DNA of 64,000 nucleotides from Rhodospirillaceae bacterium (GTDB taxonomy: Bacteria > Pseudomonadota > Alphaproteobacteria > GCA-2731375): positions 5,503-69,502 of the forward strand of contig JABIRL010000182.1 in assembly GCA_018667855.1 (NCBI GenBank). The letters run 5' to 3'. A program made the position numbers and the translations under genes. Numbering within the stretch: the stretch's first letter is position 1; the number at the start of each line of letters is the position of its first letter. This document shows, one piece after another, positions 4,718 through 44,822 of the stretch. The notes below the pieces were generated by a model, which searched no databases, was not told the DNA's origin, and saw only the letters and a program-made list of their open reading frames with translations.

Positions 4718-4737
4718 GGCAATATCCTTCACGAATC

Positions 4738-4787
4738 AATTGGCCCTATTAAACTATCATTAATTGGCCTTTGACATGAGCCAATTC
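4738..4787. promoter_or_regulatory. Candidate operator in the divergent MocR/glyoxalase promoter region
   Basis: AATTGGCC at 4738-4745 and again at 4762-4769 (direct repeat, 24-bp spacing), plus an inverted copy AGCCAATT at 4780-4787. MocR regulators bind direct/inverted repeats of this size. A strong GAGGAGGA RBS for the glyoxalase gene follows. Confidence 0.3.
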
Positions 4788-4825
4788 AGACCTCATGTTC
4801 CAAAACAGCTTCTGAGGAGGAAAAC

Positions 4826-5260: not shown

Positions 5261-5277
5261 GATCTATCCGGCCATCG

Positions 5278-6303: not shown

Positions 6304-6324
6304 ATTGCTCTCCCTATTAGTGGT

Positions 6325-7398
6325 CTAGGTCTGCCCGATACCACCGCGCACGGCGCCCGCTGCCACGTTGCGCCACAGAACCTCATGATCGGCAGGCAGG
6401 GCGCGGCTGTTTGGCATGGCCAGCCACAGACGATGCAGCAAACGGCGTTGGTCCGCGTTGGCATCGAGGTGATCCTCGTAGGCCGTGCGCGCGTGATAGA
6501 TCACATGGTTGTTGATGAACTGCATGTCACCCGGTTGCATGGTCATCTCGAAGCAAAGCTCGTCCGCCAACTCGGCCAGTAAATCCAGGGCCCGCCAATG
6601 GTGATCCTCCATGCGCGGCACATCCAGCATTTCCTGTGCCGCCTCCACATAGGTTCGGGAATAATGGGAGGTAAACCGGCCCTTAAGCTGGCCGAATACA
6701 GGCAGGGCGTAGCTTAACAATTCGCCGCCGCGTTCTTCGCCCAAACGGGCCCGGTGCAGAGGTTCGTACATAAGCGCCGCCAGCTCGGGGTCGCGGCGCA
6801 GCATTTCGTTGTGCACGGTGACGGAGGAGGCGATGCGACTGACCCCACCGGCTTTCGCCTGGCGAACACACAACAGCGCCACCACATCCGTGCGGTCCGT
6901 GTGAAAACGCAAAATCCCATTTGATAGCGTGCGCGCCTTGGACGATTGGAATTTTTCGCCGTCCCGCGTGGTTAGCTTATGCCCTTCAAGGCTATCCGTA
7001 TCCACGGCCTCATCCTGGATATCCCGCATCAGCTGGGCGTGGAAGTCCTGAAAAACCGGTTGGCCCAGATTAAGCCCAATGCCGTACCAGACGTGGCGCA
7101 GGCCATCGCCGAATTCCGCCACCGGCAGACCGGACACATTGGCCAGGCCGCTGCCGTTTTCCAGCTCGTCCGCCATCTCGGCGAATTTGTCGGCGAGACC
7201 GGGCAGGGGGAAATCGAACTTCGTCATTTTGTCCCAGGCCAGACCGCTTTGGCGGACATGGTCCAGGGCGCCATGAATTTCAGCGATATCATCCCGGGAC
7301 AAGGCGAACCGCCAGCGCGGATCCTGTTCCATTGCCTTGCCGTGCCAAGCGCAGGCGCCGTTGATTTCGCTGGGATCATGGGTCATGGCTAAATCCAA
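6325..7398 (-). CDS. TauD/TfdA-like Fe(II)/2-oxoglutarate-dependent dioxygenase
   Basis: 357 aa. HTD ... H facial triad (ILRFHTDRTD ... NHVIYHART) and overall similarity to the clavaminate-synthase-like / TauD fold. Start could be 7398 or 7386 (MTHDP). Confidence 0.55.
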   Translation of the reverse strand: MDLAMTHDPSEINGACAWHGKAMEQDPRWRFALSRDDIAEIHGALDHVRQSGLAWDKMTKFDFPLPGLADKFAEMADELENGSGLANVSGLPVAEFGDGLRHVWYGIGLNLGQPVFQDFHAQLMRDIQDEAVDTDSLEGHKLTTRDGEKFQSSKARTLSNGILRFHTDRTDVVALLCVRQAKAGGVSRIASSVTVHNEMLRRDPELAALMYEPLHRARLGEERGGELLSYALPVFGQLKGRFTSHYSRTYVEAAQEMLDVPRMEDHHWRALDLLAELADELCFEMTMQPGDMQFINNHVIYHARTAYEDHLDANADQRRLLHRLWLAMPNSRALPADHEVLWRNVAAGAVRGGIGQT

Positions 7399-7883: not shown

Positions 7884-9202
7884 GCCCCGTCCTCCGCCGC
7901 CATATAGTCGCGCCAGGCTTCGAACTGGTTGCGCATGGGCAGTTCCGAAAACCCGATGTTGGAGGTGGCGACACCGTCCTCGACCCGGTCCTGGCCGGCG
8001 TTGCGGTGGAAACTGACCCAATCGCCGCCCTCGCTCTCCAGCCCCACCTGGCATTTCCAGAAGTTGTACAGATCATCCGCGTTGATCATCGTGGAAGGTG
8101 AATTGACCAGATAGAAATAGTCCAGGGCCCGGCGATAGATCGGCTCCGGCGCGCCTTTCAGGCGAAAATGCCAGATCTCGGTCAGGGTTTTGTTGGCCGC
8201 CAGGGGGCGTACGGCGCGCAACTGCTGCAGGGGCGACTGGATCGACAGGCAGGGATAGACCAGAAGATGATGGATATTGACGTCCAGAATTTCCTCCGTC
8301 CGTTCGGGTCCGTAATGTTTTCGCATGACCTCTTCGTATTCCAGGGTATCGGGATCCGAGGGGCGCAGACCCATATAGCCCTGCAAAACGCAATGGCCGT
8401 GCGGGTGGCCAACCACGTCCAGGGCGCCCCATTTGTCCAGATCCATGGCGAAGGCCGAGATGTAGTGATAGGACAGCGGCGGGGGCTTGCCCGTCTCGGC
8501 CTCCATCTCCTGTTCGACCTTTTGGGCGGCCAGGCCGGTGGAGGTGTGGGTGATGGAGGGATGCACCGCGTCCAGCTGGTTCTCCAAAAAGATCTTCCAG
8601 TTTGATTTCTGGATCATGCGGAAACAGGTTGGCACCACCTCCACCTCGCCCTCGGGCGCCCGGTCGCACATATCATCAATCCCGGCGATGGCGGTACCCA
8701 GCCAATCCTTCAGGTCCGGACCGTCGGCCGCCAAAGAGGCAAAGACGAAACCGCGATAGACCTCCTTGCGGGCCACGGGCTTCATATGGCTATCGGGGTC
8801 GTCCAGGCTGAAGCGGGTGTTGTCATAGCCGCTTTGGATGGGAATATGGCGCACCTTGCCATCCATCTTGAACTGCCAGGAATGATAGCTGCAGGTAAAG
8901 GCCGCGCCCGTATTGCCGGAGCGCTGGTTGCACAACAACGCGCCCCGATGTGGGCAGCGGTTATAGAGCACGTGGATGGAACGATCCGGATGCCGGGCCA
9001 TGATCACCGGCTGCTTGCCGATCACCGTGGTGGCGTAATCGCCCGCATTGGGGACCTGGGATTCATGGCCCACATAGATCCAGGATTTGTGAAAGATCTG
9101 GCGGATTTCCCGCTCAAAAATCTCCTCGTCCGCATAACAGGCCCGATGCACCCGGTCCGGCTCTACCAAGGCATCAATATCAAACCCATTCCCGCCGGCC
9201 AT
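7880..9202 (-). CDS. Rieske non-heme iron aromatic-ring-hydroxylating dioxygenase, large (alpha) subunit
   Basis: Rieske motif CPHRGALLC ... CSYHSWQF, followed by the mononuclear-Fe catalytic domain (DAVHPSITH ...). GGGGAGG RBS. Confidence 0.85.
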   Translation of the reverse strand: MAGGNGFDIDALVEPDRVHRACYADEEIFEREIRQIFHKSWIYVGHESQVPNAGDYATTVIGKQPVIMARHPDRSIHVLYNRCPHRGALLCNQRSGNTGAAFTCSYHSWQFKMDGKVRHIPIQSGYDNTRFSLDDPDSHMKPVARKEVYRGFVFASLAADGPDLKDWLGTAIAGIDDMCDRAPEGEVEVVPTCFRMIQKSNWKIFLENQLDAVHPSITHTSTGLAAQKVEQEMEAETGKPPPLSYHYISAFAMDLDKWGALDVVGHPHGHCVLQGYMGLRPSDPDTLEYEEVMRKHYGPERTEEILDVNIHHLLVYPCLSIQSPLQQLRAVRPLAANKTLTEIWHFRLKGAPEPIYRRALDYFYLVNSPSTMINADDLYNFWKCQVGLESEGGDWVSFHRNAGQDRVEDGVATSNIGFSELPMRNQFEAWRDYMAAEDGA

Positions 9203-9287
9203 GGCCGCGCCTCCCCGATTTTTTCATTGCCGGAGTGTAACTTGGATGAGGGCGGGGTTTCCAGGCTCTAATCAAGCCGGGTCGAAT

Positions 9288-9587
9288 TTAATAGCCCTGG
9301 AAAACCATATCCAGGGTATTGGTGATAACGGCGAAATCCTCTACGAGGCAGACTGCCGGGTCATTCAATATTGATGCCGGAACGGAAACTAGGAACTGCG
9401 TCAACATGACGACCTGCATGCCGTCAATCTCAAACAAAGGGTTGAGGCGTTGGGCGGGCTTCGGCGCCTCATCGATGGGAAAGAGCGGCACAAAGACCCG
9501 CGTGTTGAAGCCGTCTAGCAAATCCGCTTGGACATCCATCAGATAGCCCGAGGCACCCGGGTTTGGGTAGACATCGTATTTCGCAAT
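9288..9587 (-). CDS. ccdB: CcdB-family toxin (gyrase poison) of a type II TA pair
   Basis: Aligns along its length with F-plasmid CcdB (KYDVYPNPGASGYLMDVQADLLD vs [23 protein letters not shown]; C-terminal MVFQGY vs LMFWGI). The homologous N-terminus extends upstream of the first ATG, to an ATT codon that overlaps the ccdA stop (TAATT). Confidence 0.6.
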   Translation of the reverse strand: MAKYDVYPNPGASGYLMDVQADLLDGFNTRVFVPLFPIDEAPKPAQRLNPLFEIDGMQVVMLTQFLVSVPASILNDPAVCLVEDFAVITNTLDMVFQGY

Positions 9588-9811
9588 TAGAAACGGCGAT
9601 ATCGTTCGAGCGGCAGGCCCCGGCCTTCAACCCCCCTGTCTTCAACCCATTGATTGCAGCTTTCCAACGCGCCGGCATTTTCCGCCTTCCAGATCTCGCG
9701 CCGGGTCCGGGCAATTTCAAGCCGCAAACCCGCTTCAGCTAAAAGCAAATTGTCCTGAGACAGGTTCGTCGGTTTCCTGGGAGATTTTGTCACGGTTACC
9801 CGTTCCTTCAC
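9587..9811 (-). CDS. ccdA: CcdA-family antitoxin
   Basis: MKERVTVT ... ARTRREIWKAENAGAL matches the CcdA pattern MKQRITVT ... ARRLRAERWKAENQEG. 74 aa, lies immediately upstream of ccdB. Confidence 0.7.
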   Translation of the reverse strand: MKERVTVTKSPRKPTNLSQDNLLLAEAGLRLEIARTRREIWKAENAGALESCNQWVEDRGVEGRGLPLERYRRF

Positions 9812-9856
9812 AAATTATATGCGCATACCTATGTAAAGCATTCTCAACTACCCGCT

Positions 9857-10243
9857 TTACCGTAAATAGCTCGACCGAAACTGAATGCCCCAATGGCCGT
9901 CCTGACGGGTGGCGATCCAGAGGGTGTCGAACTTGTTGTAGACGGTGTCGTCTTCGTGGCAGCGGTCAATCTCCAGTCTCAGGTGGACTTTATCGGGGCC
10001 GCTCTGGATGATTTCGATGACGTTGGTGTTGGTGTGGTGCCAGCCCTCCGCCTCCAGCTGCGCCTTGTTTACTTTGCAACGCACTAAGAACGCCTCGGCG
10101 CTGTCGTAGGTCACGAATTTTCCAACGGCCAAGCGCACATGGGGATAATTCAAGGACGCCGCCAGGGCCGCGTGATCCTGGGCGTTGAAAGCCAAAAGGA
10201 ATGCTTGCGCGGCGGCAACGGCGGCGCCTTCGGCTGCTTTGTT
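9857..10243 (-). CDS. NTF2-like / SnoaL-like domain hypothetical protein
   Basis: About 128 aa from MNKAAEG. Composition and length fit an NTF2-like alpha+beta cone. No catalytic motif recognised. Confidence 0.4.
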   Translation of the reverse strand, partial: NKAAEGAAVAAAQAFLLAFNAQDHAALAASLNYPHVRLAVGKFVTYDSAEAFLVRCKVNKAQLEAEGWHHTNTNVIEIIQSGPDKVHLRLEIDRCHEDDTVYNKFDTLWIATRQDGHWGIQFRSSYLR

Positions 10244-14564: not shown

Positions 14565-14703
14565 TCTTGGTCTCCCCACGCAAAACAGCATCCCAATGCA
14601 ATAGCGAAACTCCGCCCGGTTTGCTATCCGTTACTGGCTGCAAATCCCACCGGCTGTGTTAAATTGCCCGGCCAAGCGTTCGAAGCCCCCTCAGGAGTTA
14701 TCC

Positions 14704-16244
14704 ATGCATCCCGGAATTCATGCCGCCGAAACGCCGGACAAGGCGGCCTATATCATGGCCAACAGCGGTCAGATCGTTACCTACAGCGAACTGGACGAGG
14801 CTTCGAACCAGGGCGCGCATCTGTTTCGCGGCCTGGGCCTGGAATTGGGCGACAACATCGCGATCTATATGGAGAACAACACCGCCTATCTGCAGGTCTG
14901 CTGGGCGGCGCATCGGGCGGGGTTGTACTACACCTGCATTTCATCCTACCTGACGGCCGAGGAAGTGGCCTTCATCGTTGGCGATTGCGGCGCCAGGGTT
15001 TTATCACCTCCCAGGCGAAGGCGGAGGTCGCCGCCGAACTGTTCGATTTGATGCCCAATGTGGAAGCAAATATCATGGTGGGCGGGGTGATCCCGGGCTA
15101 CCAATCCTATGAAGCGGCCGTCGCCGAACAGCCAATTGCACCCATTTCAGACGAATTTGAAGGCGCTGACATGCTGTATTCGTCGGGCACCACCGGCCGT
15201 CCCAAGGGCATCAAGAAACCCATTACGGGCGAACCCCTTGGCACGCCCAGCGGTCCCGTCGACATAATCGGCGCGCTATATGGGGTGAGCGGGACATCGG
15301 TCTATCTTTCACCGGCGCCGCTTTATCATTCAGCACCGCTGCGCTTCAACATGGGCGTCCTGCGCAAGGGCGGCACCACCGTCGTGATGGAGCGCTTTGA
15401 TCCCGAAGGCGCCCTGGCCCTGATCGAGCGGCATAAAATCAGCCACAGCCAATGGGTGCCCACCATGTTCGTGCGCATGTTGAAATTGCCCGAGGCCGTG
15501 CGCGGCAAATACGATCTGTCCAGCCTGGAAGTGGTCATCCATGCCGCCGCCCCCTGCCCGGTTCAAACCAAGCACGACATGATCAAGTGGTGGGGCCCGG
15601 TGCTGTACGAATATTATGCCGGTACCGAAGGTAACGGATTTTGTTCCATCAAGTCCGACGAATGGCTGACCTATCCAGGCTCGGTCGGCCGGGCCTTGGT
15701 CGGCGTGGTGCATATCATGGACGATGATGGCGTCGAACAGCCCGTGGGCAGTCCCGGTACGATCTATTTTTCCGATGCGCCGGAATTCACCTATCACAAC
15801 GACCCCGAACGAACAGCCGAGTCCCGCAACGACCGCGGCTGGTCGACCCTGGGCGATGTGGGCTATCTGAACGAGGACGGCTATCTGTTTCTAACCGACC
15901 GCAAGTCCTTCATGATTATTTCCGGCGGCGTCAACATCTACCCCCAGGAAATCGAGAACCTGCTGGTCAGCCATCCGAAAATTCTGGACGTGGCCGTGGT
16001 CGGTGTCCCGGACCCGGAATTCGGCGAAGCGGTCAAGGCCGTGGTTCAGGCCATTGACCCGAAACAGGCGGGCCCGGACCTGGAGGCGGAGATCCTGGGC
16101 TATTGCCGGGAGCATCTATCGGCCATTAAATGTCCCCGCAGCGTGGATTTCGAGGCGCAACTGCCCCGCCACGAAAACGGCAAGCTGTACAAGCGCCTGA
16201 TCAAGGACCGTTATTGGGGCCGCCACGACACACGAATTGTATAA
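14704..16244 (+). pseudogene. AMP-dependent acyl-CoA synthetase/ligase (FadD-like), interrupted by a single-nucleotide frameshift at ~15000-15003
   Basis: The N-terminal 100 aa (MHPGIHAAETPDKAAYIMANSGQIVTYSELDEASNQGAHLFRGLGLELGDNIAIYMENN ... VGDCGARV) are in frame 1. The rest (ITSQAKAEV ... MLYSSGTTGRPKGIKKPI ... YYAGTEGNG ... FLTDRKSFMIISGGVNIYP ... end) is in frame 0. The join is at gggtttta, where 5 T's would restore one frame. AGGAG RBS before 14704. The 1057-aa ORF 13071..16244 in the track is an artefact built on this second frame. Confidence 0.7.
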
Positions 16245-18039: not shown

Positions 18040-19065
18040 CTAAATCTGATCGCGCCTGGCGGACCAGATAAAGCCGTCGTACCAAAAGTGCATCAGGGAA
18101 ACTACGAGGAAGGCGGAGGTAATCCAGGCGCTGTCTTCGTGATATAGGCCCGCGACGACACCATAGGCCAGTCCGACACCAAGCAGCAGCGCCAGGGCGG
18201 CTCCGGTCGCGCCGGCCCGACCCTCGCGCCCTGCCAACCGAACAAGGGTTTTCCGCTCGGACCACCAGATCAGGGCGAAGTACTGCCAGGCATGGAAAAA
18301 ATTCATGATGAAGAAGGCCATGCCGAACGGGTTGAAGCCCCAGGCATAAATTGAACAGACGCCGGTCAGAAACAACAGCACGACCTTTTGGTACGAGATC
18401 CGATGCCCGGCCCGGGCCAGTCGCCAATAGGCGTACAGATAATAGATCAGGAAGGGAATGCCGGTGCCGATCACCAGCCAGCTCAGGATACCGCTGTTGA
18501 ATTCCACGTAGGCCGGAATTTCCGTAAAGAAGAAGGAGCCCACATCCTTGAACTCCTCGAAATCGTTGACATGATCCATCAACGTGGCGCCCGCGGCGAT
18601 GGGCCCGGCGTAGAGGTAGAAATTGAGGATGATATCCAACCGGCGTCCGACCCGCGGATCGTTACCCGCCAGCTTGTCGTAGATGCGGCCCAAACCGAAT
18701 GTTTGCAGGCTGGAATGATAAACGTCCCAGAACGTCGCCAACACCGATCCGATCACCAGGGCCCAGGCGGAATACCCCATCGCCACCAGAGCCAGCAAAG
18801 GCACGACGGTAAATCGAAATGGATACAGCTGGAATATCGCGGCGTTGCCGTGGGAGCGGAAGATGACGATGAACAGATGCGCCATGATGAAGATGGAGAT
18901 GAAAATCTCTAGCCAGTTTTCACCCTCGTATACTTCCTCGCCATTCAACGGTGTTTGTGACAGCGCCAGACCCAGGACCAGGGCGAACAGCGGTGAAAGG
19001 ATGAAGAAAACCAGATCATAGGATGGCGAAACCAGATACCGGGAGGCAAAGCGTTCCGTCTGCAT
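18040..19065 (-). CDS. Uncharacterised polytopic inner-membrane protein (about 9-10 TM, His/Trp-rich loops)
   Basis: 341 aa and very hydrophobic. Conserved-looking HAWQYF and HFWYDGFIW segments. No family assigned from sequence alone. Confidence 0.45.
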   Translation of the reverse strand: MQTERFASRYLVSPSYDLVFFILSPLFALVLGLALSQTPLNGEEVYEGENWLEIFISIFIMAHLFIVIFRSHGNAAIFQLYPFRFTVVPLLALVAMGYSAWALVIGSVLATFWDVYHSSLQTFGLGRIYDKLAGNDPRVGRRLDIILNFYLYAGPIAAGATLMDHVNDFEEFKDVGSFFFTEIPAYVEFNSGILSWLVIGTGIPFLIYYLYAYWRLARAGHRISYQKVVLLFLTGVCSIYAWGFNPFGMAFFIMNFFHAWQYFALIWWSERKTLVRLAGREGRAGATGAALALLLGVGLAYGVVAGLYHEDSAWITSAFLVVSLMHFWYDGFIWSARRDQI

Positions 19066-19079
19066 GGCGAACCCCGACC

Positions 19080-19775
19080 CTATTCCACAACAACGCGCAG
19101 TTCACCGAAGGTCTCTTGCAGATAGCCCAGCAAGGCAACAAAGAATACGGCGAGGCCCGACAATTCCATGGTTTCCTGCACAATGTTGAGCATGCCATAG
19201 ACCGGATCGGTGCCGTAAATGGAAACCCAGTGATTGACAAAAAATTCCGTGCCCAAGGCACCGCCCACATAGACCACGGCCGCCAACACGAATAGCCGCC
19301 TTGTTGGTGCCGACAACGCGCCCAGGAAGCGCCAATAGGCCACTGCCAGCACGGCCACGATGGCGCAAGCCGGAATGACCCAGGCGTAATACAGCATGCC
19401 GCCAAGGTCAAAAGTGTGGCGCAGGGGGCGATTGATCAATTCATGCAGCTGCACTGTTTCATCAATGGAGATGTAGACGAAGATCAGGGCCAGGGCGAGC
19501 CAATGACCCCGGTAGGCACCCTTTCCGGGCGGCGTCGCCAGGACAATGGCGGTCAGCAGACCCGCACAGGCCAACAATAGCGCCGAGGCATACCAATTGG
19601 GGATGTTGCATTCCATGACCATATTGAACAGGCGCACCAAGGTATCGCGTTTTGAAAAGTCAAACAGGTGATCCGCCACTTCGCTGGCAAAACCCAACAG
19701 CGCCAGGCTCGGTGTCACGATGAGGAACCACAACTTTATCCTTGCGAGCGGGATGGCGATGCGCGCCTGGCTCAT
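19080..19775 (-). CDS. Uncharacterised membrane protein (about 6 TM)
   Basis: 231 aa and hydrophobic. 15-nt gap to the downstream membrane-protein gene and 63 nt from the TadG-like gene stop on the same strand. Confidence 0.45.
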   Translation of the reverse strand: MSQARIAIPLARIKLWFLIVTPSLALLGFASEVADHLFDFSKRDTLVRLFNMVMECNIPNWYASALLLACAGLLTAIVLATPPGKGAYRGHWLALALIFVYISIDETVQLHELINRPLRHTFDLGGMLYYAWVIPACAIVAVLAVAYWRFLGALSAPTRRLFVLAAVVYVGGALGTEFFVNHWVSIYGTDPVYGMLNIVQETMELSGLAVFFVALLGYLQETFGELRVVVE

Positions 19776-19838
19776 GGCAACCTCGTGTGCTGAATAAATT
19801 TCAATTTGAACTGCAAACCCGACGGCCGGCGCGGTCGG

Positions 19839-21314
19839 CTATTGGACCAGGTGGGAGCTGGATGTAATCAGGATCGGCGTCGTGCCGGCGCTGTCACAGG
19901 ACGAATTCAGTGTGGAATTGCCGGTAAAATCAATGGTCTGGGCGATGACCTGCGTGCAGGTGGAACCGCCCGTGGTATTGCCGCCCGTGAACTCGATCGC
20001 TTCGTTGGGAAAATACAGCGCACCCGTGAAGTTGGTGGTGGAACCACCATTGAATTTGTTCTTTGTGGTCGAGGCCGCATCTTTATCCTGATAAAACACC
20101 ACGCCCGAATAATCACCGCTGGTCGGTGCCGCCAGAGTGACGATGGCGCCGCCATTGATGGTGACGGAACCCGGTGAATCGCCGTCACTGTCGGTCAAAA
20201 TGATGGTAACACCGGTACCTCCATCCACCTCCTTCAGGGTCGCGCCGCCATTGACCGAGAAATTGCCGTCGTCAATGACATAGGTGCCCGATCCCAATTC
20301 AACCGTACCGCCGGTAATTTCAAATTTACCGCAATAGGTGCCGGCGGAGAGTGTGTCGGTGCCGGAGGTATTCTTGTAATTCGTATCAATACAATTGCCT
20401 ACCGTCGGATCGGGCAAACCGCTGTACGGATCGGCGGTCGCCGAGGTGCCGGTCTCGGCCGCGCCGCAGGTCAGGTCGAACTCCGGCGATGCCGCGTCGG
20501 TACCGCCGACGATGCTGGCGCAATTTGCGTCCAGCGTGGCGCTGCCGCCCACTTCAAGGGCATCATCGTCATCGGAATTGGCGGCGACATCGCAACTATT
20601 GAAGGCCACGACGGCATTACCGCCAACGTCGATGGCGCCCTTGGCCGATGAACTGAGCGCCAGGGCGCAGGCGGTGCCGCCGCTGCCCGAACTGGTCGCC
20701 ACGGCGATGGTCTCTATATCGATGGAACTGAAACTGACAATGCCGCCGAAGGTCAAATCAAACGCATTGCCGTTGGATGCTGTTTTGCGAACCGTCACCC
20801 GGGCTGCGTTGACCGGCGTGCCGTTGGCGGTGAAAGCCCGGGTGTCTTCGTCCCAGTTTCCAACCTCCACATCCGCCGACACCAGGACATCACCATGGTC
20901 GGCCGCCGGTAGGTTCAATTCGGTGATGGCCAGGGCCCGGGATTCAGCCTCATCAGAGTCACTGGCGACCGAGGCCGCCGCCAAGGCGGCGGCATCCGCC
21001 TCCCCGCGCATCTGGGCCTGGGCCGAAAGAATGAAACCGACATCCACGGCCAGGCCGGCCAGCGCCAGCAACGGCATCACCAGCAATGCAAAGACCAGCG
21101 CCACGGCGCCGCCGCCTTCTTGACCAAATCGGCCTATCTTTCGCCACCACAAGGCGTTGGCGGCTTTTCCGCCGGCTGTTATCTGTCGTTTCACAATCAT
21201 CTGATCCATCCAAGGTTTTGACGCTTGTCCGTCCCTTAGCCCCCAGACATCAAAGAAGCCCAAATTTCGCGGTCGCACAATAATTCGTACATAGCCGCCA
21301 CGGCCCGACTGCAA
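19839..21314 (-). CDS. TadG-like (Flp-pilus-assembly TadE/G-domain) large pseudopilin-like protein
   Basis: The N-terminal segment GGGAVALVFALLVMPLLALAGLAVDVGF is the TadE/TadG N-terminal helix. The remainder is Gly/Thr/Ser/Asp-rich beta-rich sequence. Real start is probably internal (MIVKRQ ... or later). Confidence 0.55.
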   Translation of the reverse strand: MQSGRGGYVRIIVRPRNLGFFDVWGLRDGQASKPWMDQMIVKRQITAGGKAANALWWRKIGRFGQEGGGAVALVFALLVMPLLALAGLAVDVGFILSAQAQMRGEADAAALAAASVASDSDEAESRALAITELNLPAADHGDVLVSADVEVGNWDEDTRAFTANGTPVNAARVTVRKTASNGNAFDLTFGGIVSFSSIDIETIAVATSSGSGGTACALALSSSAKGAIDVGGNAVVAFNSCDVAANSDDDDALEVGGSATLDANCASIVGGTDAASPEFDLTCGAAETGTSATADPYSGLPDPTVGNCIDTNYKNTSGTDTLSAGTYCGKFEITGGTVELGSGTYVIDDGNFSVNGGATLKEVDGGTGVTIILTDSDGDSPGSVTINGGAIVTLAAPTSGDYSGVVFYQDKDAASTTKNKFNGGSTTNFTGALYFPNEAIEFTGGNTTGGSTCTQVIAQTIDFTGNSTLNSSCDSAGTTPILITSSSHLVQ

Positions 21315-21872
21315 CTATTTCTTACTGCTTTTCTTCTTGCTGTTATCCGAGGATTTCTTGCTGGTACACGATCCTTTCTTCTTTCCGCAGCTGGTGTTGT
21401 TTTCGCTTGATTCCTCTAGATACATACTCGCCGTCACCGACATGGTCTGATCTCCGACAAGTTCATCGGGATAGGCGTTGACCAACGCGGCATCCGCCAT
21501 GGGCGTAGATATTGATACCGTGATCGTGGCCGCGGATGTTCCCAGCCCGTCGGTGGCGGCGGTGACTGTAAACGTGCCCTTGGCATTGCCATCCGACAAA
21601 AGGGTCTCAGCCAAAGTTACGGTTTCTTCCGTGGACAGGGCCGCGCCCGTGACATAACCGCGGGCCGCCTCCCTAGCCGCATAAAACATCACATGGCGGG
21701 AGAACATGATGGAGGCGAATTCGACGATGCCGAAAAGAACGATCAGCATGATCGGGAAAATCAACGCGAATTCAATGGCGATGGCGCCGCGTTTATTGCC
21801 CCGTCGTCGGATAAACAGGCGTCTTTTGGATTTTTCCGTCATCCGGTCGGCCATCCCCATTTGAGCATCCAA
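21315..21872 (-). CDS. TadE-like pilus-assembly protein with a Lys/Ser-rich C-terminal tail
   Basis: GAIAIEFALIFPIMLIVLFGIVEFASIMF is the TadE N-terminal motif. The C-terminus is SCGKKKGSCTSKKSSDNSKKKSSKK. Confidence 0.65.
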   Translation of the reverse strand: MDAQMGMADRMTEKSKRRLFIRRRGNKRGAIAIEFALIFPIMLIVLFGIVEFASIMFSRHVMFYAAREAARGYVTGAALSTEETVTLAETLLSDGNAKGTFTVTAATDGLGTSAATITVSISTPMADAALVNAYPDELVGDQTMSVTASMYLEESSENNTSCGKKKGSCTSKKSSDNSKKKSSKK

Positions 21873-21961
21873 CTTATGAAACTATTCTAGCGTTAAGGAA
21901 CCCTTATGACAATTTCGATGCGGTTTGCTTCAACAAGTTTTGAAACCACCCGTAAATACGC

Positions 21962-22525
21962 TCAGGAGTTCGGCAGCGTTGTGTGAGACAGCCGGGTGGT
22001 ATCGAAACTTGGCAAATCCAATTGGCTTGGCAGTCCGGGAAGGTAGCGCACCGCCACGAAATTATAGGCCAGGCCGGTGACCTCGACCGTAATCAGAGGC
22101 GTTATCGTCTCGCCCGTACCGCTGATATCCAAACCGCTGTCCGTGTAGGTGACAATGACGTTGGCGGCGGTAATACGGGACGATACCTCCCTCATTGCCG
22201 ATACCACGGCATCGAAGGTGGCGGAATTATCCACCGTGACGCCATTGCAAGACACACCGCCCGAACCGCTGCAAGGTACCGGCGTCGATGCCAATTCGGC
22301 CAGATCGATAATCGGGTCCTCGGTCAGGGCCGTGCGCAGGCCGCGCCGGGTGGCCTCGGAAATCTTGTGGTAATCAAACATGATCAGCCCACCCTCCAGC
22401 GCGCCAAGCGTGAGGAGGAGGAGCGCCGGAAGGATCAGTCCGAATTCCACCGCCGTGGTGCCTTTGCGGCATTTGCGCCATCCCCCGGCGATCCGTTTCA
22501 GCTGTTTTATTCTGTCCCAAGCCAT
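21962..22525 (-). CDS. TadE-like pilus-assembly protein
   Basis: GTTAVEFGLILPALLLLTLGALEGGLIMF N-terminal TadE motif. Confidence 0.65.
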   Translation of the reverse strand: MAWDRIKQLKRIAGGWRKCRKGTTAVEFGLILPALLLLTLGALEGGLIMFDYHKISEATRRGLRTALTEDPIIDLAELASTPVPCSGSGGVSCNGVTVDNSATFDAVVSAMREVSSRITAANVIVTYTDSGLDISGTGETITPLITVEVTGLAYNFVAVRYLPGLPSQLDLPSFDTTRLSHTTLPNS

Positions 22526-22528
22526 GGA

Positions 22529-23029
22529 TCAATCTCCCACATAGGCCTGTTCATGGGCGGCATTCATGGTAATCGACATGAAGCCATAGGTATGTAGAAG
22601 CCCGCTGAACAGGGCCTTGTACGGCACCGACGCCACGACTTTTATGACCTCGTAGCTATTGCCGCCGGCGCTGTATGTTGATGTGGTTACCGCCAGGCTC
22701 GACGCGCCGTCGGACCAGCCCGGAACCACAAAATCGCCCGAGCCGTCCGCCGTGCCGGTCTTCACCAAATTTTCGATCGTGGCTTGCGAACCACCCGACA
22801 GCGGCAGGCTGGAGCGGGCCGCCAACATAGCGCCAACCCGTAGACTTTTGTCCAACTCGTTGGATTGATTGATGTAGTAGCCAAAATCAATGATGCCCAC
22901 CATGACCAGCGCCAGCAACGGCGCGAACAGGGCGAATTCCACCGCCGCGATGGCACGGCGACATTTCAACGCCGCGACCGCGTTGCCCGAAACCTTAGTC
23001 AATAAGCTGAACATTGACATGTACGTCAT
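22529..23029 (-). CDS. TadE-like pilus-assembly protein
   Basis: AIAAVEFALFAPLLALVMVGIIDFGYYINQ N-terminal TadE motif. Overlaps the upstream gene's stop by ~35 nt, so the start may be internal. Confidence 0.6.
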   Translation of the reverse strand: MTYMSMFSLLTKVSGNAVAALKCRRAIAAVEFALFAPLLALVMVGIIDFGYYINQSNELDKSLRVGAMLAARSSLPLSGGSQATIENLVKTGTADGSGDFVVPGWSDGASSLAVTTSTYSAGGNSYEVIKVVASVPYKALFSGLLHTYGFMSITMNAAHEQAYVGD

Positions 23030-24383
23030 CCGAATACTGTTGCAACAAGGGTCCGATAACTTCCGTGTAGGTATCCGCCAGGGTACCCGCGACTTCCTCG
23101 GTCAGGAAAACTTCCACGTAGCGGCCATAGGTCGGATAGTCGCCGCTGCCCTGTACGCCAAGCGCGGTACAATTCAATACGGCGATTTTCATGACCCGCC
23201 GTTTGATTTCCGATGAGGCCGTGGACGAAGGCACCCCCGCCGCCGGAATGGAAGCTCCGGACGGCGTCACGGTGGTATAGGTGCCGGGCTTGGTAATGCC
23301 GTCCGTGGGATAAATGGTTTTGTTGTCATACCGGTAAAACGTTTCACCCAGTTCATACAGAAACACCTGGTAACGGGTGTAGTTGACCAGATCGGCGGGT
23401 TCGGTTTCGCCGGAATGATTGGTCGACCAATAGGACACCGGGTCCCAATCACCGTTGCCGATGATGGTGCTGCCGGACATGTCGGAATCCCGGCCATAGC
23501 CCATGATATTTTGGGATGGATATTTCGGGTTCTTGGTACCGGAATCCATGCGCGCATTGATGCCGTTGATGGCCTGCTGGGTTTGCGAGCCGGGCGATGT
23601 GGTGACGATGGAGGTGTAACAAAGGCCCGGATCGTTAGCCAGGGCATCACCAACGCTGGCCGCACCGCAATTACCCGATGATGGGCACAGAAGGCCGAAA
23701 TTGCCCGGCGCCAGGGTGCCCCCGCCCGGGCCGGTCTTGGTCAATAACTGGCGGCCGGCATTGTCGGCATCCAGCAGATCGTCGCTAGGGTTGCCGCCCT
23801 CGGCCGGATTGCAGGCCATAAAGGGTGGAGCGGCGCAGACAATGGGCTCGATACCCGCCCGTGCCGTACCTTCGAGGGTAAATTGATCCGCCACCACGCC
23901 GCTGGCAATGGTCTCCAGCACCGGCGCCAGGAATATGGAAATTGTCCGGGGGACCAAGGTCACCGCGACCATAACGGCTTCATCATCGACCGTCGTGACC
24001 AGCGGCGTCGGGTCGGTATCGTCGTAAAACACTATGCTTTGCACGGTGAAGGCGCCGGATGGATCGGTCAGGGAGGTGGTATTGGTAATGGCGTTGGAAG
24101 CCGCCGCGGTGCCCCGGTTGATGGCGCCGGACTGGCCGTCAAGCTGTGCGGCGGCCGACAGGGCCGCGGAATCGGCAGCGTTTTGCATTTGCGAGCGAAG
24201 CACCACGACCCGGCCGATATCCAGGGCCAAGACACCGCCCGAAAGCGCCAGGGTTCCGGCGAAAGCGACATAAATAGCCGTCGCGCCGCTGCGGTCCTTC
24301 ATCATGGATGTCAGTGCCGACCAAATGCGCGCCACATATCCTTGACGTGGTTTCCTGCCCGGTATTACCTCGGCCCTCGTCAT
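22995..24383 (-). CDS. TadG-like pilus-assembly protein (large pseudopilin)
   Basis: N-terminal GATAIYVAFAGTLALSGGVLALDIGRVVVLRSQMQNAADSAALSAA matches the TadG family N-terminus. 462 aa, Gly/Thr/Ser-rich. Confidence 0.6.
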   Translation of the reverse strand: MTRAEVIPGRKPRQGYVARIWSALTSMMKDRSGATAIYVAFAGTLALSGGVLALDIGRVVVLRSQMQNAADSAALSAAAQLDGQSGAINRGTAAASNAITNTTSLTDPSGAFTVQSIVFYDDTDPTPLVTTVDDEAVMVAVTLVPRTISIFLAPVLETIASGVVADQFTLEGTARAGIEPIVCAAPPFMACNPAEGGNPSDDLLDADNAGRQLLTKTGPGGGTLAPGNFGLLCPSSGNCGAASVGDALANDPGLCYTSIVTTSPGSQTQQAINGINARMDSGTKNPKYPSQNIMGYGRDSDMSGSTIIGNGDWDPVSYWSTNHSGETEPADLVNYTRYQVFLYELGETFYRYDNKTIYPTDGITKPGTYTTVTPSGASIPAAGVPSSTASSEIKRRVMKIAVLNCTALGVQGSGDYPTYGRYVEVFLTEEVAGTLADTYTEVIGPLLQQYSDDVHVNVQLID

Positions 24384-24479
24384 GATTGTCGGTTCTCCAT
24401 GCTGGTCGACGCAGCATTACAGACGGCTGCACGAATAGACATGTATTTGCATGGCGCTCTTCGCAAGTGACACCGATCA

Positions 24480-24636
24480 CAAGGCACGCAAAATAGCCAC
24501 GCGAAGATGAATTATTCCATACCTTAAATTAAAATATTCTGAATATTCCAAAATAATTTGGAATTATTTTATTTTGTGGTTGATATTTTATTAATATCGA
24601 ACCGGAGAAAAACAACACTCTCCGTATACAGTTGAT
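24480..24636. promoter_or_regulatory. Strongly AT-rich island (promoter/regulatory region of the Tad-like operon) with a near-perfect palindrome TTCCAAAATAATTTGGAA (24546-24563) and an aatattc direct repeat
   Basis: About 75% A+T in a 62% GC genome. Lies directly upstream of the first gene of the minus-strand Tad-like operon. Confidence 0.4.
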
Positions 24637-25794
24637 TTACAAAGTATTCAAACCAGCTTCAATGCGGTCCATGGCTTCGGAGAGTTGCGCTTCCGACTTT
24701 GCGAAACACAGGCGCAGGAAACCTTCATTATCCGGTCCAAATGCCGAGCCCGGCGCCAATCCAACGCGATGTTCGCGCACCAATTGCTTGGCAAACGCCA
24801 AATCGTCCTTCAGCCCGTCGATTTTGGGAAAGGCATAGAAGGCAGCCTTGGGCGCCGCCAGGGTTACGCGGTCATGCCCGCCAAGACGCTGGTGCACGAT
24901 GTCCCGGGCGCGGCGGCAGCGTTCAACACCCATGGCCACGAAATCCTCGCCATCCCGCAAGGCAACCGCGGCGGCATGCTGTACGAAGGAGGTGGAACCT
25001 GTGTTGTTGATACCGGACAGATCGCCCATTTTATCGCCCAGGTCGGCCGGATGTACCAGCCAGCCGCAACGCCACCCCGTCATGCACCAGGCCTTGGACA
25101 TGGAATGCACCACGTAGAGAGCGTCATCAGGCTCGGCGATGGACAAAAACGACGGCGCCACCGCCCGGTCATAAACGATACGGTGATAGACTTCGTCCGC
25201 AATGATCCAGATGCCCCGTTGGCGGCAGAAATCCAATACCGCTTGTTGCTGTTCCGGCTCCATCAGCCAGCCGGTGGGGTTGGAGGGTGAGGCGATGAAG
25301 ATGGCCTTGGTCCGTTCGTCACAGGCATCGAACAGCTTGTCCAGATCCAACCGCCAGCCAGTCTCGGTCAGGTCCAGGCGAACATGGCGGCTTTCCCCGC
25401 CCATGGTTTGCGTGCAGTAGAAAATGTTCGGCCAGATGGGCGAGATCATCACCACATTGTCGCCGTTGTTCACAAGAGTTTCCGTCGCGATCATGATCGC
25501 CGTCATGCCCGAACCGGTCACGGTGATCCGCTCCCCATCCAGCTCGATGCCGAATTGCGCCTGGGTATAGTCCAGAATGGCCTGGCGCAGTTCTGGGATA
25601 CCGCGCTTGTTCACATAGCGGGTCTGTCCCGACTGCATGGCATCGATCGCTGCCTGGCGGATAAAATCCGGTGTATCCAGGTCCGGTTCGCCGAACCACA
25701 ACGGAATGACATCCGGATCGCCGATGGCGATACGCGAGACCTCGCCAATGCGCTGGGTTTGCATGTCTGAAATGGCGGTGCGGACAGTGGGCAT
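24637..25794 (-). CDS. Pyridoxal-phosphate-dependent aminotransferase, class I/II (aspartate/aromatic aminotransferase-like)
   Basis: Fold-type I pattern, with VVHSMSKAWCMTGWRCGW around the PLP lysine. AAGGA RBS before MPTVRT. Confidence 0.8.
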   Translation of the reverse strand: MPTVRTAISDMQTQRIGEVSRIAIGDPDVIPLWFGEPDLDTPDFIRQAAIDAMQSGQTRYVNKRGIPELRQAILDYTQAQFGIELDGERITVTGSGMTAIMIATETLVNNGDNVVMISPIWPNIFYCTQTMGGESRHVRLDLTETGWRLDLDKLFDACDERTKAIFIASPSNPTGWLMEPEQQQAVLDFCRQRGIWIIADEVYHRIVYDRAVAPSFLSIAEPDDALYVVHSMSKAWCMTGWRCGWLVHPADLGDKMGDLSGINNTGSTSFVQHAAAVALRDGEDFVAMGVERCRRARDIVHQRLGGHDRVTLAAPKAAFYAFPKIDGLKDDLAFAKQLVREHRVGLAPGSAFGPDNEGFLRLCFAKSEAQLSEAMDRIEAGLNTL

Positions 25795-34600: not shown

Positions 34601-36124
34601 CTAAAACTGAACCATAATTTCAGCCCGCGCGCCGGAGCCATTATCCCGGCTTTCCAGATATGAGACAAAGGCATCAAGTTGCAGTTGCACATGCTGACCA
34701 ATGGCTTGTTGGAATTGTACGGTCAGGGCCGCGGCATCGGTACCGACGCCATCGTCTTCGAACAGGTTGCGGGTATTGTCCTTCAAACCGGCCAGCTCGA
34801 TCACCAGATTACGCCGGTGGTTGTCCCAAAACGCCTGATAGCCAATGGCGATGCCGGCGGCCTGGGTGTTGAAGCTGCTCAACTCGGACAAATGGTTGCC
34901 CAGGCTGGGCGATGCGAACGAGATCCCCAAGGGCGCCAACGGGCCGCCCACCACCGGTTCCCGGCTGACCTGGGTGTAGCGGTCAAAGCCATAGAAGGGA
35001 TTGACGTACACCACGTCGTCCGAAGAATGAGGCGTCCACGAAATCTCGGCCGAGACCAGAACGCCATCGGCCACCAGGGCCGTGTCCGTATCCCGGGCAA
35101 AGGATGCATTGATCCGATAGGCGGTATTGAAACTGGCCGACCGGCTCCACGGCGTCCAGGCCCGTTGCGAGGCGGACAGCCCGGCCCAGAAGCCGTCGCC
35201 GCCCGTGGTGTCATCACTGTCGTCATCGACCGCGATAAAATCCAGGCCCCATGTGGTGGTCGGGTCATCCGCCTGCAGGAACAGACCATACAGGCCGCCC
35301 GGCCGGTTCAACCGTTGCCGGTTCGACGGGCCGCCCCGATCGATCGAGCCCCAGGCATAAACGCCGGTAGCCCGGATATTGGAAAACCCCGGCGCATGCA
35401 TATTGTTGCGCACGATGCCAACCGAATCCAAAAAGTCATTGATCATGATGCCTTCTTGGAAATGGATCCGCTGCCGCCCGAAGGCGTAGCCGAAATCAAT
35501 GAATTTGGTACCCTTGGGATCCAGAATCGGGAACATGGATCCGAAGTCGCCGTCACAAAACGCCGTGCGCACGAAGGTGCCGGCCTCCGAACGCCCGCCT
35601 TCCTCGGCCTGGTGGGATTCCCAGCTATATCGCGTGAAGTTAGTGAAACGGTTCTTATCCAACGGCGCCACGCCAATGATACATTTGTCGGAAGTGGTCA
35701 AATTCAGGTTGGCGAAGATGTCCAGCCGGGTCGCTAATTCGGTGTTCCGCCCCACGGGACCCACGGATTCATAAGTCTGCATGGCCACGCGCCAGGTGCC
35801 AAAGCCCCACAGACAAGGGGTCCAGACCGCGCCGGTCGGTAATTTCACGCCCTGGGGAAGATTGCCGTTGCCAAGGAATTTGCAGCCCAATTCCAAAATC
35901 AACTCCGGCCGGTCAGGCGGAATGACGTAAGGCACCGGTTTGTCAGACAACCGCGGCACCGGCGTTGTTTCGCCCAAGGGGTACAATCCCCCCAGCAGTC
36001 CCTTGGCGTGAGCCGTTGGGGCCGCGCCAAAAGTCAACACGACCGCCGCAGTTAGGAACGCGGCTTGAACATAGTTTCGGATCCGGCCATGCCGTCCAAG
36101 TCGCTCTTTTTTCATCGGTGCCAT
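34601..36124 (-). CDS. Outer-membrane beta-barrel protein (porin-like), co-operonic with the multiheme cytochrome
   Basis: Sec signal peptide (AAFLTAAVVLTFGAAPTAHA). About 480 aa of alternating amphipathic beta-strand pattern rich in Gly/Tyr/Asn/Asp/Thr. C-terminal ... RAEIMVQF ends in an aromatic residue as in OMP barrels. GGAGAGG RBS before MAPMKK. Confidence 0.5.
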   Translation of the reverse strand: MAPMKKERLGRHGRIRNYVQAAFLTAAVVLTFGAAPTAHAKGLLGGLYPLGETTPVPRLSDKPVPYVIPPDRPELILELGCKFLGNGNLPQGVKLPTGAVWTPCLWGFGTWRVAMQTYESVGPVGRNTELATRLDIFANLNLTTSDKCIIGVAPLDKNRFTNFTRYSWESHQAEEGGRSEAGTFVRTAFCDGDFGSMFPILDPKGTKFIDFGYAFGRQRIHFQEGIMINDFLDSVGIVRNNMHAPGFSNIRATGVYAWGSIDRGGPSNRQRLNRPGGLYGLFLQADDPTTTWGLDFIAVDDDSDDTTGGDGFWAGLSASQRAWTPWSRSASFNTAYRINASFARDTDTALVADGVLVSAEISWTPHSSDDVVYVNPFYGFDRYTQVSREPVVGGPLAPLGISFASPSLGNHLSELSSFNTQAAGIAIGYQAFWDNHRRNLVIELAGLKDNTRNLFEDDGVGTDAAALTVQFQQAIGQHVQLQLDAFVSYLESRDNGSGARAEIMVQF

Positions 36125-36217
36125 CTTTAGCTCGCCTCTCCGATTCGCCGATCTGTATTTCGCATATCTATTCGCCATTCCCGCTTGAGGGCCAATTCGA
36201 CCTGTCCGCCTTGCCGC

Positions 36218-38281
36218 TTACTTGACATCGATGGATATGGTTTCCTCGTAAAGCACCTCACGGCCCGCGACCACCGCGTTGGCCGCCGCGCGCGGGCTGA
36301 TGCCGTAATCAAAACCGACCACCTGGATGGTGCTGATCAGATTGATGGGAAACATCTGTGCCAATAATTCGACCTTGGCTTTGTATGGTCCCTTGCCCGT
36401 CAGCGCGCTGCCCGGAATTTCGTATTTTGCGATACGATGACCAAGCGGCTCGATACCTTTTCGGTGGTTTCTCTCGACCGTGGATTCGCCCGTCAAAACC
36501 AATGACAACCGCGTCGGCCGCAGGAAAGGCAGCGCAGTTGTCGAATAGGGAATGGTCACCGTCCGTTCCCGCTCGCCCCCGCGCACGCTTTGCACCAGGA
36601 AGCGCGATTGCAAGTTGAACAACTGGGTATCCAGCGGCAATTCGCCGGCATGCACGAATGCCGATTCATTGTCGCGGACGTCACCATTGGCATCGGTATC
36701 GCCGGACTGGAATACCACCTTGCCATCCGCATCCATCACGGTGATCCGGATCCAGACCAGGCGTTCGCCGGTAAAGCCCGTCGGGGTATTATGCCCGGTC
36801 GTGATATTGGAAACCTTGGCCTGAATATCGATGCCGTTTCCGTTCGCCCTGGTCGCCTTGACGTCGCTCATGAAATAACCGTTGCGCAAAACTTCCAGAC
36901 GCAGCGTGCGTACGTAAGCCAGACGCTTCAGCTGATAGTCAATAATTTCCCGGCCATCATACCGGGCATCGATGGATTCCCATGCCTTTGGGAATTTCAT
37001 GCCGGCAGGCACATTATCCTCGAACTTATCTGTGCCCCAGCCGGCCGCCACATCAAAGGTCAACCATTCCGACAAGGTCGCGAGTTGTTGCGCCTCCGCA
37101 TTGTGGGGAAAGATGCCGGGGGGCAGCAGTGAATAATCGGGGCCGGCCATGATGTGATTGGTCAGCTTCCGCGATTTGGTGGGAACACCGCCCACGACCG
37201 CCGCCGGACCTTCATGATAGCCCGAAACGATGCCCTGCACCTTGCCCATGTGGCAATCCTGGCAGGTTATCCCTTCCGCCGCCGCAGGCGAGTCCCGATA
37301 TTCGCTGAAGGCTTCTTCCAGACGGAAGCCGTTCAATAACGTCACATCGTGGCAGGTGCCGCAGAAAGTGGAAGATGAAATTTCCTTGAATTCAATGGCC
37401 TCCGTATGGATCTTACGGCCCGGCTCATCCGCCTTGGTGACCACCCGGTATTCATTTCGATTGGCCAGGACGCGTTTCAATTCCTTGTCGCCGGCGGGAC
37501 CATAGACGGGCTGCAGCAAATCGCCCTCGACCAGGGCCACCCGGCCGGACGCCTTATTATAGATATTCGCCACTCTGTGGCAGACGATGCATGTGATGCC
37601 TTCACGCGACGTGGGATGGCGTTCCAGATTGGAAACCCCAACCGGTTCTTCCATGTTCATACCAACCTGATTATGACAGCGGATGCAAAAATCGCCGTTG
37701 GTGCCGTTCACATTCAGGTTGATGAAATTTTGCAAAGCCATATAGGCCGGGCTCAATTGCGCATATGAATGTTGCGAAACCGCCCATTCCTCGAAATGGC
37801 GGGGATGACATGTGCCGCAGGTTGTCGCGGAAGGATATCGGCTCTCGGCAAACAAAGCGGCATGCTCCTTGCCGGCCTTGGTCAACGGCTTGCCGGTTGC
37901 CTCTGTTTCCTTTTTCTCTTCGTCGTCGTCGTCGTCATCCTTCAGCAGATTGTCGTCGTCGTCATCATCATCGTCATCCTTCCCCAACAGATCGTCATCG
38001 TCCTTTTTCTTGGCCTGCGCCAAGAGCAGTGGTTGGGACATCGCCGGCGCGGCCCCAATGATGTCAGTGGAGATGTCAGTGGAGATGTTGGCGGAGATCT
38101 CGGCGGCTCCGATTACGAGGGGCGATGCCATGCCCGCACCCGCCGCCGAAGCCGTGTTCAAAGACAGGGGCGTGAACAATAGTCCGCCCAGCACCACGCC
38201 GAGCGCCGCAGCGCCCCCGCTAATGCTGAATAACTCGCCATGGATTTCAATTTTCCGCGTCATGGTCATTCGCCCCATCAC
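36218..38281 (-). CDS. Pentaheme c-type cytochrome with an N-terminal signal/anchor, a poly-Asp/Lys low-complexity linker and a ~330-aa non-heme C-terminal domain
   Basis: Five CxxCH motifs (CGTCH, CIRCH, CIVCH, CGTCH, CQDCH) within about 200 aa. Acidic tract KKKDDDDLLGKDDDDDDDDDNLLKDDDDDDEEKKE. Hydrophobic N-terminal segment. Confidence 0.75.
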   Translation of the reverse strand: MMGRMTMTRKIEIHGELFSISGGAAALGVVLGGLLFTPLSLNTASAAGAGMASPLVIGAAEISANISTDISTDIIGAAPAMSQPLLLAQAKKKDDDDLLGKDDDDDDDDDNLLKDDDDDDEEKKETEATGKPLTKAGKEHAALFAESRYPSATTCGTCHPRHFEEWAVSQHSYAQLSPAYMALQNFINLNVNGTNGDFCIRCHNQVGMNMEEPVGVSNLERHPTSREGITCIVCHRVANIYNKASGRVALVEGDLLQPVYGPAGDKELKRVLANRNEYRVVTKADEPGRKIHTEAIEFKEISSSTFCGTCHDVTLLNGFRLEEAFSEYRDSPAAAEGITCQDCHMGKVQGIVSGYHEGPAAVVGGVPTKSRKLTNHIMAGPDYSLLPPGIFPHNAEAQQLATLSEWLTFDVAAGWGTDKFEDNVPAGMKFPKAWESIDARYDGREIIDYQLKRLAYVRTLRLEVLRNGYFMSDVKATRANGNGIDIQAKVSNITTGHNTPTGFTGERLVWIRITVMDADGKVVFQSGDTDANGDVRDNESAFVHAGELPLDTQLFNLQSRFLVQSVRGGERERTVTIPYSTTALPFLRPTRLSLVLTGESTVERNHRKGIEPLGHRIAKYEIPGSALTGKGPYKAKVELLAQMFPINLISTIQVVGFDYGISPRAAANAVVAGREVLYEETISIDVK

Positions 38282-38567
38282 TATCTATCTAATGCGTCAG
38301 TCTGGCCAAGTTCCGGGTTTATATTACCCCATCTAAAAGGCACAGAAACCAGCCAGCCAATACGCCATCCAACATATCGTTGCGGCGAAAATCGCCACGA
38401 CCGGTGTCGGCTACATACTTGGCCAGCCCGCAACTTGACTGACATTCGTCGCGACATGTTAGCCCAATTTCACAAAACAAACAAAATTGATGCTGATTTA
38501 CCACGACGACCTCACCCATAGTAGCAAAAATGTGACATATTGTTGTTTCTTCTACCAGCGTTAGATT

Positions 38568-44680: not shown

Positions 44681-44822
44681 GTCAAATTCCAAATACTCGA
44701 GATAACGTTCCGGGAATTTTGTTTTCCCATTGCAAAAATATAGAATTATTCCTAAAATAAGTTCGGGAATATAAAATTTGTGCATTTCAAAACATTAGAA
44801 CTTACTTCAAGGAGCCGATTAC

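Follow-up and report, generated by a model that had tools for sequence, protein, structure and literature searches.

The window analyzed here is a 64-kb stretch of contig JABIRL010000182.1 (GCA_018667855.1) from a marine Rhodospirillaceae metagenome-assembled genome, in which seven consecutive co-directional open reading frames (ORFs), g1 to g7 with g1 the most upstream, occupy the minus strand from 18040 to 24383 (Table 1). The gene callers of the Joint Genome Institute (JGI) and NCBI predict the same seven genes in three assemblies of this one organism, and the aminotransferase gene upstream of them lies on the same strand. The first five genes encode proteins related to the minor pilins of Tad systems and the last two encode polytopic membrane proteins of no named family. 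As described in the initial annotation, which was made from the sequence without database searches, the genes lie behind an AT-rich island, and its core is indeed the 120 nt of lowest GC content in the window, followed by 44643-44762 (28%), a second AT-rich island situated 5' of the Fur gene region. The short gaps and overlaps ascribed to the block are present at g1/g2 (a 26-nt overlap), g5/g6 (63 nt) and g6/g7 (14 nt), and are replaced at g3/g4 and g4/g5 by gaps of about 117-119 nt each.

Table 1. Features of the g1-g7 region, in window coordinates and from upstream to downstream.
Feature	Coordinates	Strand	Remarks
Upstream intergenic region with AT-rich island	24384..24636	-	island core 24524-24643, 23% GC; sigma70-like site 24594-24566
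g1, TadG-like large minor pilin, 462 aa	22995..24383	-	PF13400 Tad, 35.6 bits (cutoff 22.3)
g2, TadE-like small minor pilin, 163 aa	22529..23020	-	PF07811 TadE, 39.8 bits; 163 aa called by JGI and NCBI
g3, TadE/TadF-like small minor pilin, 187 aa	21962..22525	-	PF07811, 45.2 bits; Flp/TadE motif match by regular expression
Sigma70-like match TTGTCA-17-TAGAAT, 10/12	21884..21912	-	in the ~119-nt g3/g4 gap; consensus match only
g4, TadE-like small minor pilin, 175-181 aa	21315..21860	-	PF07811, 51.1 bits
g5, TadG-like large minor pilin, 453-456 aa	19839..21209	-	PF13400 (32.4 bits), PF09977 Tad_C and PF23981 DUF7305
g6, integral membrane protein of an unnamed family, 231 aa	19080..19775	-	~6 predicted transmembrane helices
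g7, integral membrane protein of an unnamed family, 341 aa	18040..19065	-	~10 predicted transmembrane helices

All five products of g1-g5 score above the Pfam gathering thresholds (22.3-22.9), with g2, g3 and g4 recovered by the TadE profile and g1 and g5 by the Tad profile, in agreement with the two TadG-like and three TadE-like proteins of the initial annotation. In g1 the Tad helix is N-terminal (residues 33-80) and precedes a C-terminal domain that belongs to no family. This N-terminal helix is the only part that g1 and g5 have in common, and the vWA (von Willebrand factor A) domain is not among the Pfam matches of either. Homologs of g5 carry the JGI name 'Flp pilus assembly protein TadG'; the start of g5 itself lies about 37-40 codons downstream of that of the longest ORF. 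The longest ORF for g4 likewise extends further, to 21872, and its product has a Ser/Lys-rich C-terminal tail. The motifs of g2 (RRA-IAAVEFAL), g3 (KG-TTAVEFGL) and g4 (RG-AIAIEFAL), in which the hyphen marks the predicted cut, fit a prepilin peptidase site of the form G/A-x4-E/F as A-IAAVEF, G-TTAVEF and G-AIAIEF respectively, the consensus being quoted as G/A-x4-F/E in the Tad literature cited below. A canonical AxEFAL helix, initially attributed to all five proteins, is thus a property of g2-g4, and the corresponding segments of g1 (GATAIYVAF) and g5 (GAVALVFAL) have no Glu.

Homologs of g5 are found both in genuine tad loci and in orphan sets. One of them (P0247, 50% identical) is encoded in an insertion sequence-riddled tad locus (L092) with T2SSF, RcpC-N (T2SS-T3SS_pil_N), TadE, Flp_Fap, Peptidase_A24 and PilZ, and a second (P0324) is one of two TadG-like proteins whose genes adjoin a Flp pilin gene. 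A third (P0292) is encoded in an orphan trio, TadG-TadE-TadE, on a contig from Rhodospirillaceae, on which a TadE-x-TadG(VWA) trio lies 9 kb away and no Tad core gene occurs within 10 kb. The window contains no Tad/Cpa core either, as had been stated initially. Of the remaining ORFs, those as far as about 54 kb gave in Pfam scans only metabolic enzymes, regulators and housekeeping proteins (MiaB, PhoH and Lnt among them); the genes further along, at 54-64 kb (those for MetK, TrmB, RimP, NusA, IF-2 and TruB), which lay outside the Pfam scan, were recognized by eye from their translations; and a six-frame scan of the window with regular expressions found zero T2SSE-type Walker A motifs, g3 being the sole match to the Flp/TadE-like motif.

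Comparison with related genomes shows that the block is composite. In the relatives whose g7 is 75-84% identical to that of the window (L001, L006, L008 and L009), the flanking genes differ and only orthologs of g4-g5-g6-g7 are present, with g4 preceding the other three and no g1-g3. In locus L012, the orthologs of g1 (14595-15998), g2 and g3 constitute a plus-strand unit of their own, and another set, TadE-TadE-TadG(VWA), runs convergently to g7. Within the window the g3/g4 gap coincides with a local dip in GC content (21825-21944) and contains a sigma70-like match. Because the relatives keep g4-g7 alone, L012 has g1-g3 apart, and the gap between them has these two features, we divide the region into three units, namely a g1-g3 trio of the tadG-tadE-tadF type, a g4-g5 TadE+TadG pair and a g6-g7 membrane module. 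Conservation in relatives is accordingly that of g4-g7 and not of the whole block, and the single seven-gene operon proposed at first is doubtful. In the lineage of the window, g6-g7 are probably co-transcribed with g4-g5. As sigma70-like matches in the region are as numerous as expected from shuffled sequence, the g3/g4 site counts for little when taken singly, and a separate start for a g4-g7 unit at this site is possible. The region 24384-24636 is the probable promoter/operator of g1-g3, and a perfect 7-nt inverted repeat within the AT-rich island 5' of g1 (TTCCAAA-TTAT-TTTGGAA, 24546-24563) is a candidate operator. An Rfam scan of 17.8-24.9 kb yielded no family at E<=1. In L001, one of the closest relatives without g1-g3, a 221-aa membrane protein of unknown function and a 524-aa membrane-fused spermine-synthase-like protein are encoded 5' of the TadE-TadG-g6-g7 block (4893-7129, plus strand).

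The two membrane proteins belong, as initially noted, to no recognized family. Neither matches any Pfam or NCBIfam entry, sequence searches of the PDB with both profiles gave chance matches only (E>=0.2), PHROGs and PADLOC returned no match, and a full-text literature search with the g7 motifs found no paper. Both nevertheless yield confident AlphaFold models, with a mean predicted local distance difference test score (pLDDT) of 86 and a predicted template modeling score (pTM) of 0.86 for g7 and values of 92 and 0.89 for g6; a Foldseek search of the g7 model against the PDB gave a template modeling (TM) score of at most 0.21. The g7 family is large and widespread. A search of 1.84 billion cluster representatives with its profile produced 1200 matches at E<=1e-3, including 232 at E<=1e-30, and homologs were found in 382 GTDB species representatives from Alphaproteobacteria, Planctomycetota, Myxococcota (Enhygromyxa salina and Sorangium), Acidobacteriota, Verrucomicrobiota, Bacteroidota and Gammaproteobacteria (Haliea, Zooshikella and a metagenome-assembled Methylococcaceae genome), with an identity of about 50% between phyla. 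An alignment of members from several phyla (A1) has a mean column identity of 55% and 55 invariant columns, among them H63, R70, S71, H72, R84, W113, D114, H117, R127, R141, D144, N148, H165, N255, H258, Q261, H326, W328 and D330. In g6, W92, F99, D105, E106, H111, W132, L154, A173, E204 and G207 are invariant and E55, E112, E177 and E201 nearly so. As a simple hydropathy scan missed polar helices, topology was read from the AlphaFold2 helices and the charge of the loops. On these models, g7 would span the membrane about ten times with both termini in the cytoplasm and most of its invariant polar residues in the cytoplasmic half, and g6 about six times with its acidic/His cluster directed towards the periplasm. 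The pattern of conservation, that is, invariant His, Asp, Asn and Gln residues in g7 and an Asp-Glu...His-Glu cluster in g6, leads us to suggest, as a best guess, that g6 and g7 are most likely the two subunits of an integral-membrane enzyme that has a metal site.

Two known functions that were considered for these proteins find no support. An A24 prepilin peptidase (TadV/CpaA/PilD) is contradicted by the lack of both a PF01478 domain and a FlaK/PilD-like fold in g6 and g7. Pfam searches at E<=10 over every alignment member (55 for g7 and 61 for g6) revealed nothing recurrent for g7 and no T2SSF (PF00482) in either family, and no T2SSE Walker motif was found in the window or in any Tad-linked g7 locus of the genome set, which speaks against a platform protein of the TadB/TadC type. 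The same searches gave weak matches of g6 to DUF4131 (17/61) and Acyl_transf_3 (11/61, best 3e-5), which we regard as reflecting transmembrane composition.

Gene neighborhoods identify g6 and g7 as partners. Among 82 loci fetched with g7, a g6 homolog is near g7 in 24, in 18 of these at a distance of about 350 nt or less, and this count is a lower bound as many of the contigs are short. These neighbors come from Alphaproteobacteria, Planctomycetota, Acidobacteriota, Myxococcota, Verrucomicrobiota and Methylococcaceae, and g6 may be upstream or downstream on the same strand, convergent or divergent. Conversely, g7 is adjacent in 18 of 80 metagenome loci that were fetched independently with g6 by means of a narrower g6 alignment, all being 50% or less identical to the g6 of the window and 26 having 1.3 kb on both sides. 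The two are also fused in a single protein, P0374, with a g6 domain at 10-207 (151 bits) followed by a g7 domain at 229-568 (426 bits). Clustering of the genes around g7 brought out no recurrent partner besides g6 and TadE, and more distant g6 homologs occur alone in varied contexts, such as an exopolysaccharide (EPS) locus. From adjacency across phyla and the fusion, subject to the low coverage of the contig that carries the latter (see below), g6-g7 constitute a separate, ancient and widely distributed two-gene module. Directly 5' of the fusion gene, locus L094 encodes a beta-rich protein of periplasmic or lipoprotein-like character whose C-terminal tail is poly-basic (HRKHRKHRK...; 4661-5989, plus strand), and a domain similar to this protein follows the g7 domain in P0390.

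By a sensitive search, 11 of the 82 loci, or 10 if the near-identical L001 and L006 are merged, have TadE/TadG-like genes no more than 10 kb from g7, and in every one of them these genes directly adjoin g7 or g6. Pfam confirms TadE or Tad plus VWA for the pilin-like neighbors beyond the clade of the window, with TadG-VWA genes abutting g7 in L012, L020, L026 and L032. On a neighbor-joining tree of g7, the Tad-linked cases occupy at least four positions and differ in gene order, namely the window clade with L014, L026 (Kiloniellales), L023 with L032 (Planctomycetota) and L020 (Planctomycetota), and two further cases (L107 and L113) come from the metagenome set obtained with g6. The association of TadE/TadG with g7 is recurrent and unlikely to be due to chance, yet it is a minority pattern. 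At the Tad-linked loci of the genome set (L001-L096), which is the set that was scanned, there is no T2SSE ATPase within 10 kb. The two planctomycete loci L023 and L032, both with TadE/TadG genes, also share a protein of 516-579 aa found in no other locus (48% identity, no Pfam match, a C-terminal membrane segment), encoded between g6 and g7, just 5' of g6 and divergently from g7 (4707-6443 and 7886-9433, respectively, both on the minus strand).

These neighborhoods bear on what g6-g7 do in the window. One option offered by the initial annotation was that the genes make up a surface or secretion module of their own, with g6 and g7 in place of the TadB/TadC platform. All that speaks for it is that the genes run in one direction and that the window lacks core genes, and we regard it as close to refuted: an ATPase, a secretin and a major pilin are all missing, g6 and g7 are nearly devoid of soluble domains on which an ATPase could dock, and their conservation is enzyme-like. 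As pilin genes are absent from about 71 of the 82 g7 loci and neither a T2SSF nor an A24 signature is found, g6/g7 are unlikely to be a dedicated platform and form an independent gene pair. The same distribution would suit a different account, in which the pilins serve a distant Tad machine and g6-g7 are an unrelated envelope or lipid enzyme that merely happens to be encoded downstream. Orphan TadG/TadE sets without g6/g7 and the distant g6 homologs in unrelated contexts agree with this account, which we take to be possible, though clearly less probable than the composite reading advanced below. It fits less well with the direct juxtaposition of TadE/TadG with g7 or g6 wherever they co-occur, at several places on the g7 tree and in L107 and L113, with the retention of g4-g7 as a block despite changing flanks, or with the narrow spacing of g5, g6 and g7.

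One may also ask if the TadE/TadG-like proteins are pilus components at all. They could instead be periplasmic proteins anchored in the membrane, partners of g6-g7 in an envelope function independent of pili, as the lack of a Tad core in the window and within 10 kb of the Tad-linked g7 loci, the absence of the conserved Glu from g1 and g5, and the abutment of TadG-VWA genes on g7 in four loci might suggest. This we consider improbable, in view of the full peptidase motif kept by g2-g4, the close g5 homologs encoded beside a Flp pilin and an A24 peptidase in a genuine tad locus, and the pilus-linked phenotypes of orphan tadGEF and cpaL in other Alphaproteobacteria (PMC10934763, PMC12607857).

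We therefore favor the composite reading of the block, in which g1-g5 are minor pilins of a Tad (type IVc) system whose machine is encoded elsewhere and g6-g7 a distinct enzyme module, and assign to this reading as a whole a probability of roughly 0.55. It builds on domain content, gene order, conservation, synteny, the g6-g7 fusion and the absence of core genes from the window. Its pilin component corresponds to the other option of the initial annotation, a minor-pilin set acting with a distant tad locus, which is the best supported of the proposals given the order of g1-g3, the precedents in the literature and the position of P0247 in a tad locus. Under the composite reading, g1-g5 would insert into the inner membrane through their N-terminal hydrophobic helices, and g2-g4 would be cut at their G/A-x4-E-F sites by a prepilin peptidase of the TadV/CpaA type encoded elsewhere. 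The g1-g3 and g4-g5 sets might each form a small complex that primes the Flp filament and is located at its tip, and two alternative tip specificities could then come from the C-terminal domains, which are unrelated between g1 and g5. In the putative enzyme, the invariant His, Asp, Asn and Gln residues of g7 would lie near the cytoplasmic leaflet and the Asp-Glu...His-Glu cluster of g6 near the periplasmic one.

Several observations weigh against this reading. On the pilin side, g1 (G-ATAIYV) and g5 (G-AVALVF) have neither Glu nor Phe at +5 of the peptidase site, the second set (g4-g5) has one small pilin rather than two, and no Tad machine has been demonstrated for the genome, the search having covered the 64-kb window only. 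On the side of the membrane proteins, pilin genes within 10 kb are confined to the minority of g7 loci given above, the idea of a metal enzyme derives from residue conservation alone with no fold or family match found, and the gene for P0374 is on a 26-kb long-read contig (ctg292545, ERZ25072999) of 3x coverage, so that an assembly error is possible. In a more specific version, g6 and g7 would be the two membrane subunits of an unrecognized metalloenzyme acting at the inner membrane on minor pilins of the Tad type, for example in an alternative maturation or modification, or as an anchor of the tip complex. We hold this to be unlikely, even if it would explain why TadE/TadG genes stand directly beside g6-g7 in several unrelated lineages.

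Elsewhere in the window, we observed an acyl-CoA synthetase (AMP-binding) gene on the plus strand (14656-16244) that is split into two frames with a junction at about 15000-15060 (JGI calls of 115 and 419 aa), reflecting either a frameshift error or a pseudogene. On the minus strand, a CcdB toxin gene (PF01845) with an adjoining CcdA antitoxin gene is located amid aromatic-ring dioxygenase genes (9291-9900). Also on the minus strand (34604-38284), a gene for a 688-aa multiheme cytochrome with a long poly-Asp/Lys acidic stretch lies upstream of one for a 538-aa protein, which has no Pfam match at E<=1e-5 and is possibly an outer-membrane partner of the cytochrome.

The only really new item in the region is the g6-g7 pair, an unstudied and probably enzymatic membrane complex with no family name, fold relative or trace in the literature. 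Its recurrent position beside Tad minor pilins provides a first handle on its role, and it may be testable because g7 is encoded by isolates whose genomes have been sequenced, namely Enhygromyxa salina, Haliea sp. E17, Zooshikella sp. RANM57 and Sorangium sp. So ce1000, the last of which has g6 as well (L078). Like TadB/TadC (T2SSF) and TadV/CpaA (A24), g6 and g7 are polytopic inner-membrane proteins encoded near pilin genes; unlike them, they mostly occur without such genes, and they have no sequence or fold similarity to these components.

The pilin genes, in contrast, have counterparts in known systems. In Bradyrhizobium diazoefficiens USDA 110, extra tadGEF genes (Locus 3) are found apart from the two main tad/cpa clusters, and their loss affects root adhesion (PMC10934763). 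The g1-g3 trio resembles this orphan cluster in being from an alphaproteobacterium, in its TadG-TadE-TadF order and in having no core alongside; it differs in that the window adds a second TadE+TadG pair and two conserved membrane protein genes downstream. In Caulobacter crescentus, cpaL is an orphan TadG-like (vWA) gene outside the pilus cluster, whose product works with the cpa locus and, by prediction, joins CpaJ and CpaK in a complex at the tip (PMC12607857). Here too a TadG-type protein has its pilus cluster elsewhere or unseen and is predicted to take a place at the tip together with small minor pilins, of which g2-g4 fit a G/A-x4-F/E site. Unlike CpaL, g1 and g5 have no vWA domain, which is present in the TadG-like neighbors of g7 in the four loci mentioned above. 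The Kil pilus of Myxococcus xanthus, from another phylum, has four TadE/F/G-like 'Tip' clusters (KilL/M/N paralogs), three of which lie apart from the kil core; the distal domain of their large subunit is variable (PMC12075869). In the available part of that report no membrane pair is described with the Tips, and the second set of the window is two-membered. As with the Tips, the window has several TadE/F/G-like minor-pilin sets away from the machine, whose large subunits, g1 and g5, are alike in the N-terminal helix alone. Other bacteria have already furnished orphan sets of Tad minor pilins, and the pilin part of the window adds one example, from a marine member of the Rhodospirillaceae, of what would be exchangeable Tad tip sets encoded off the machine, which is useful if not surprising.

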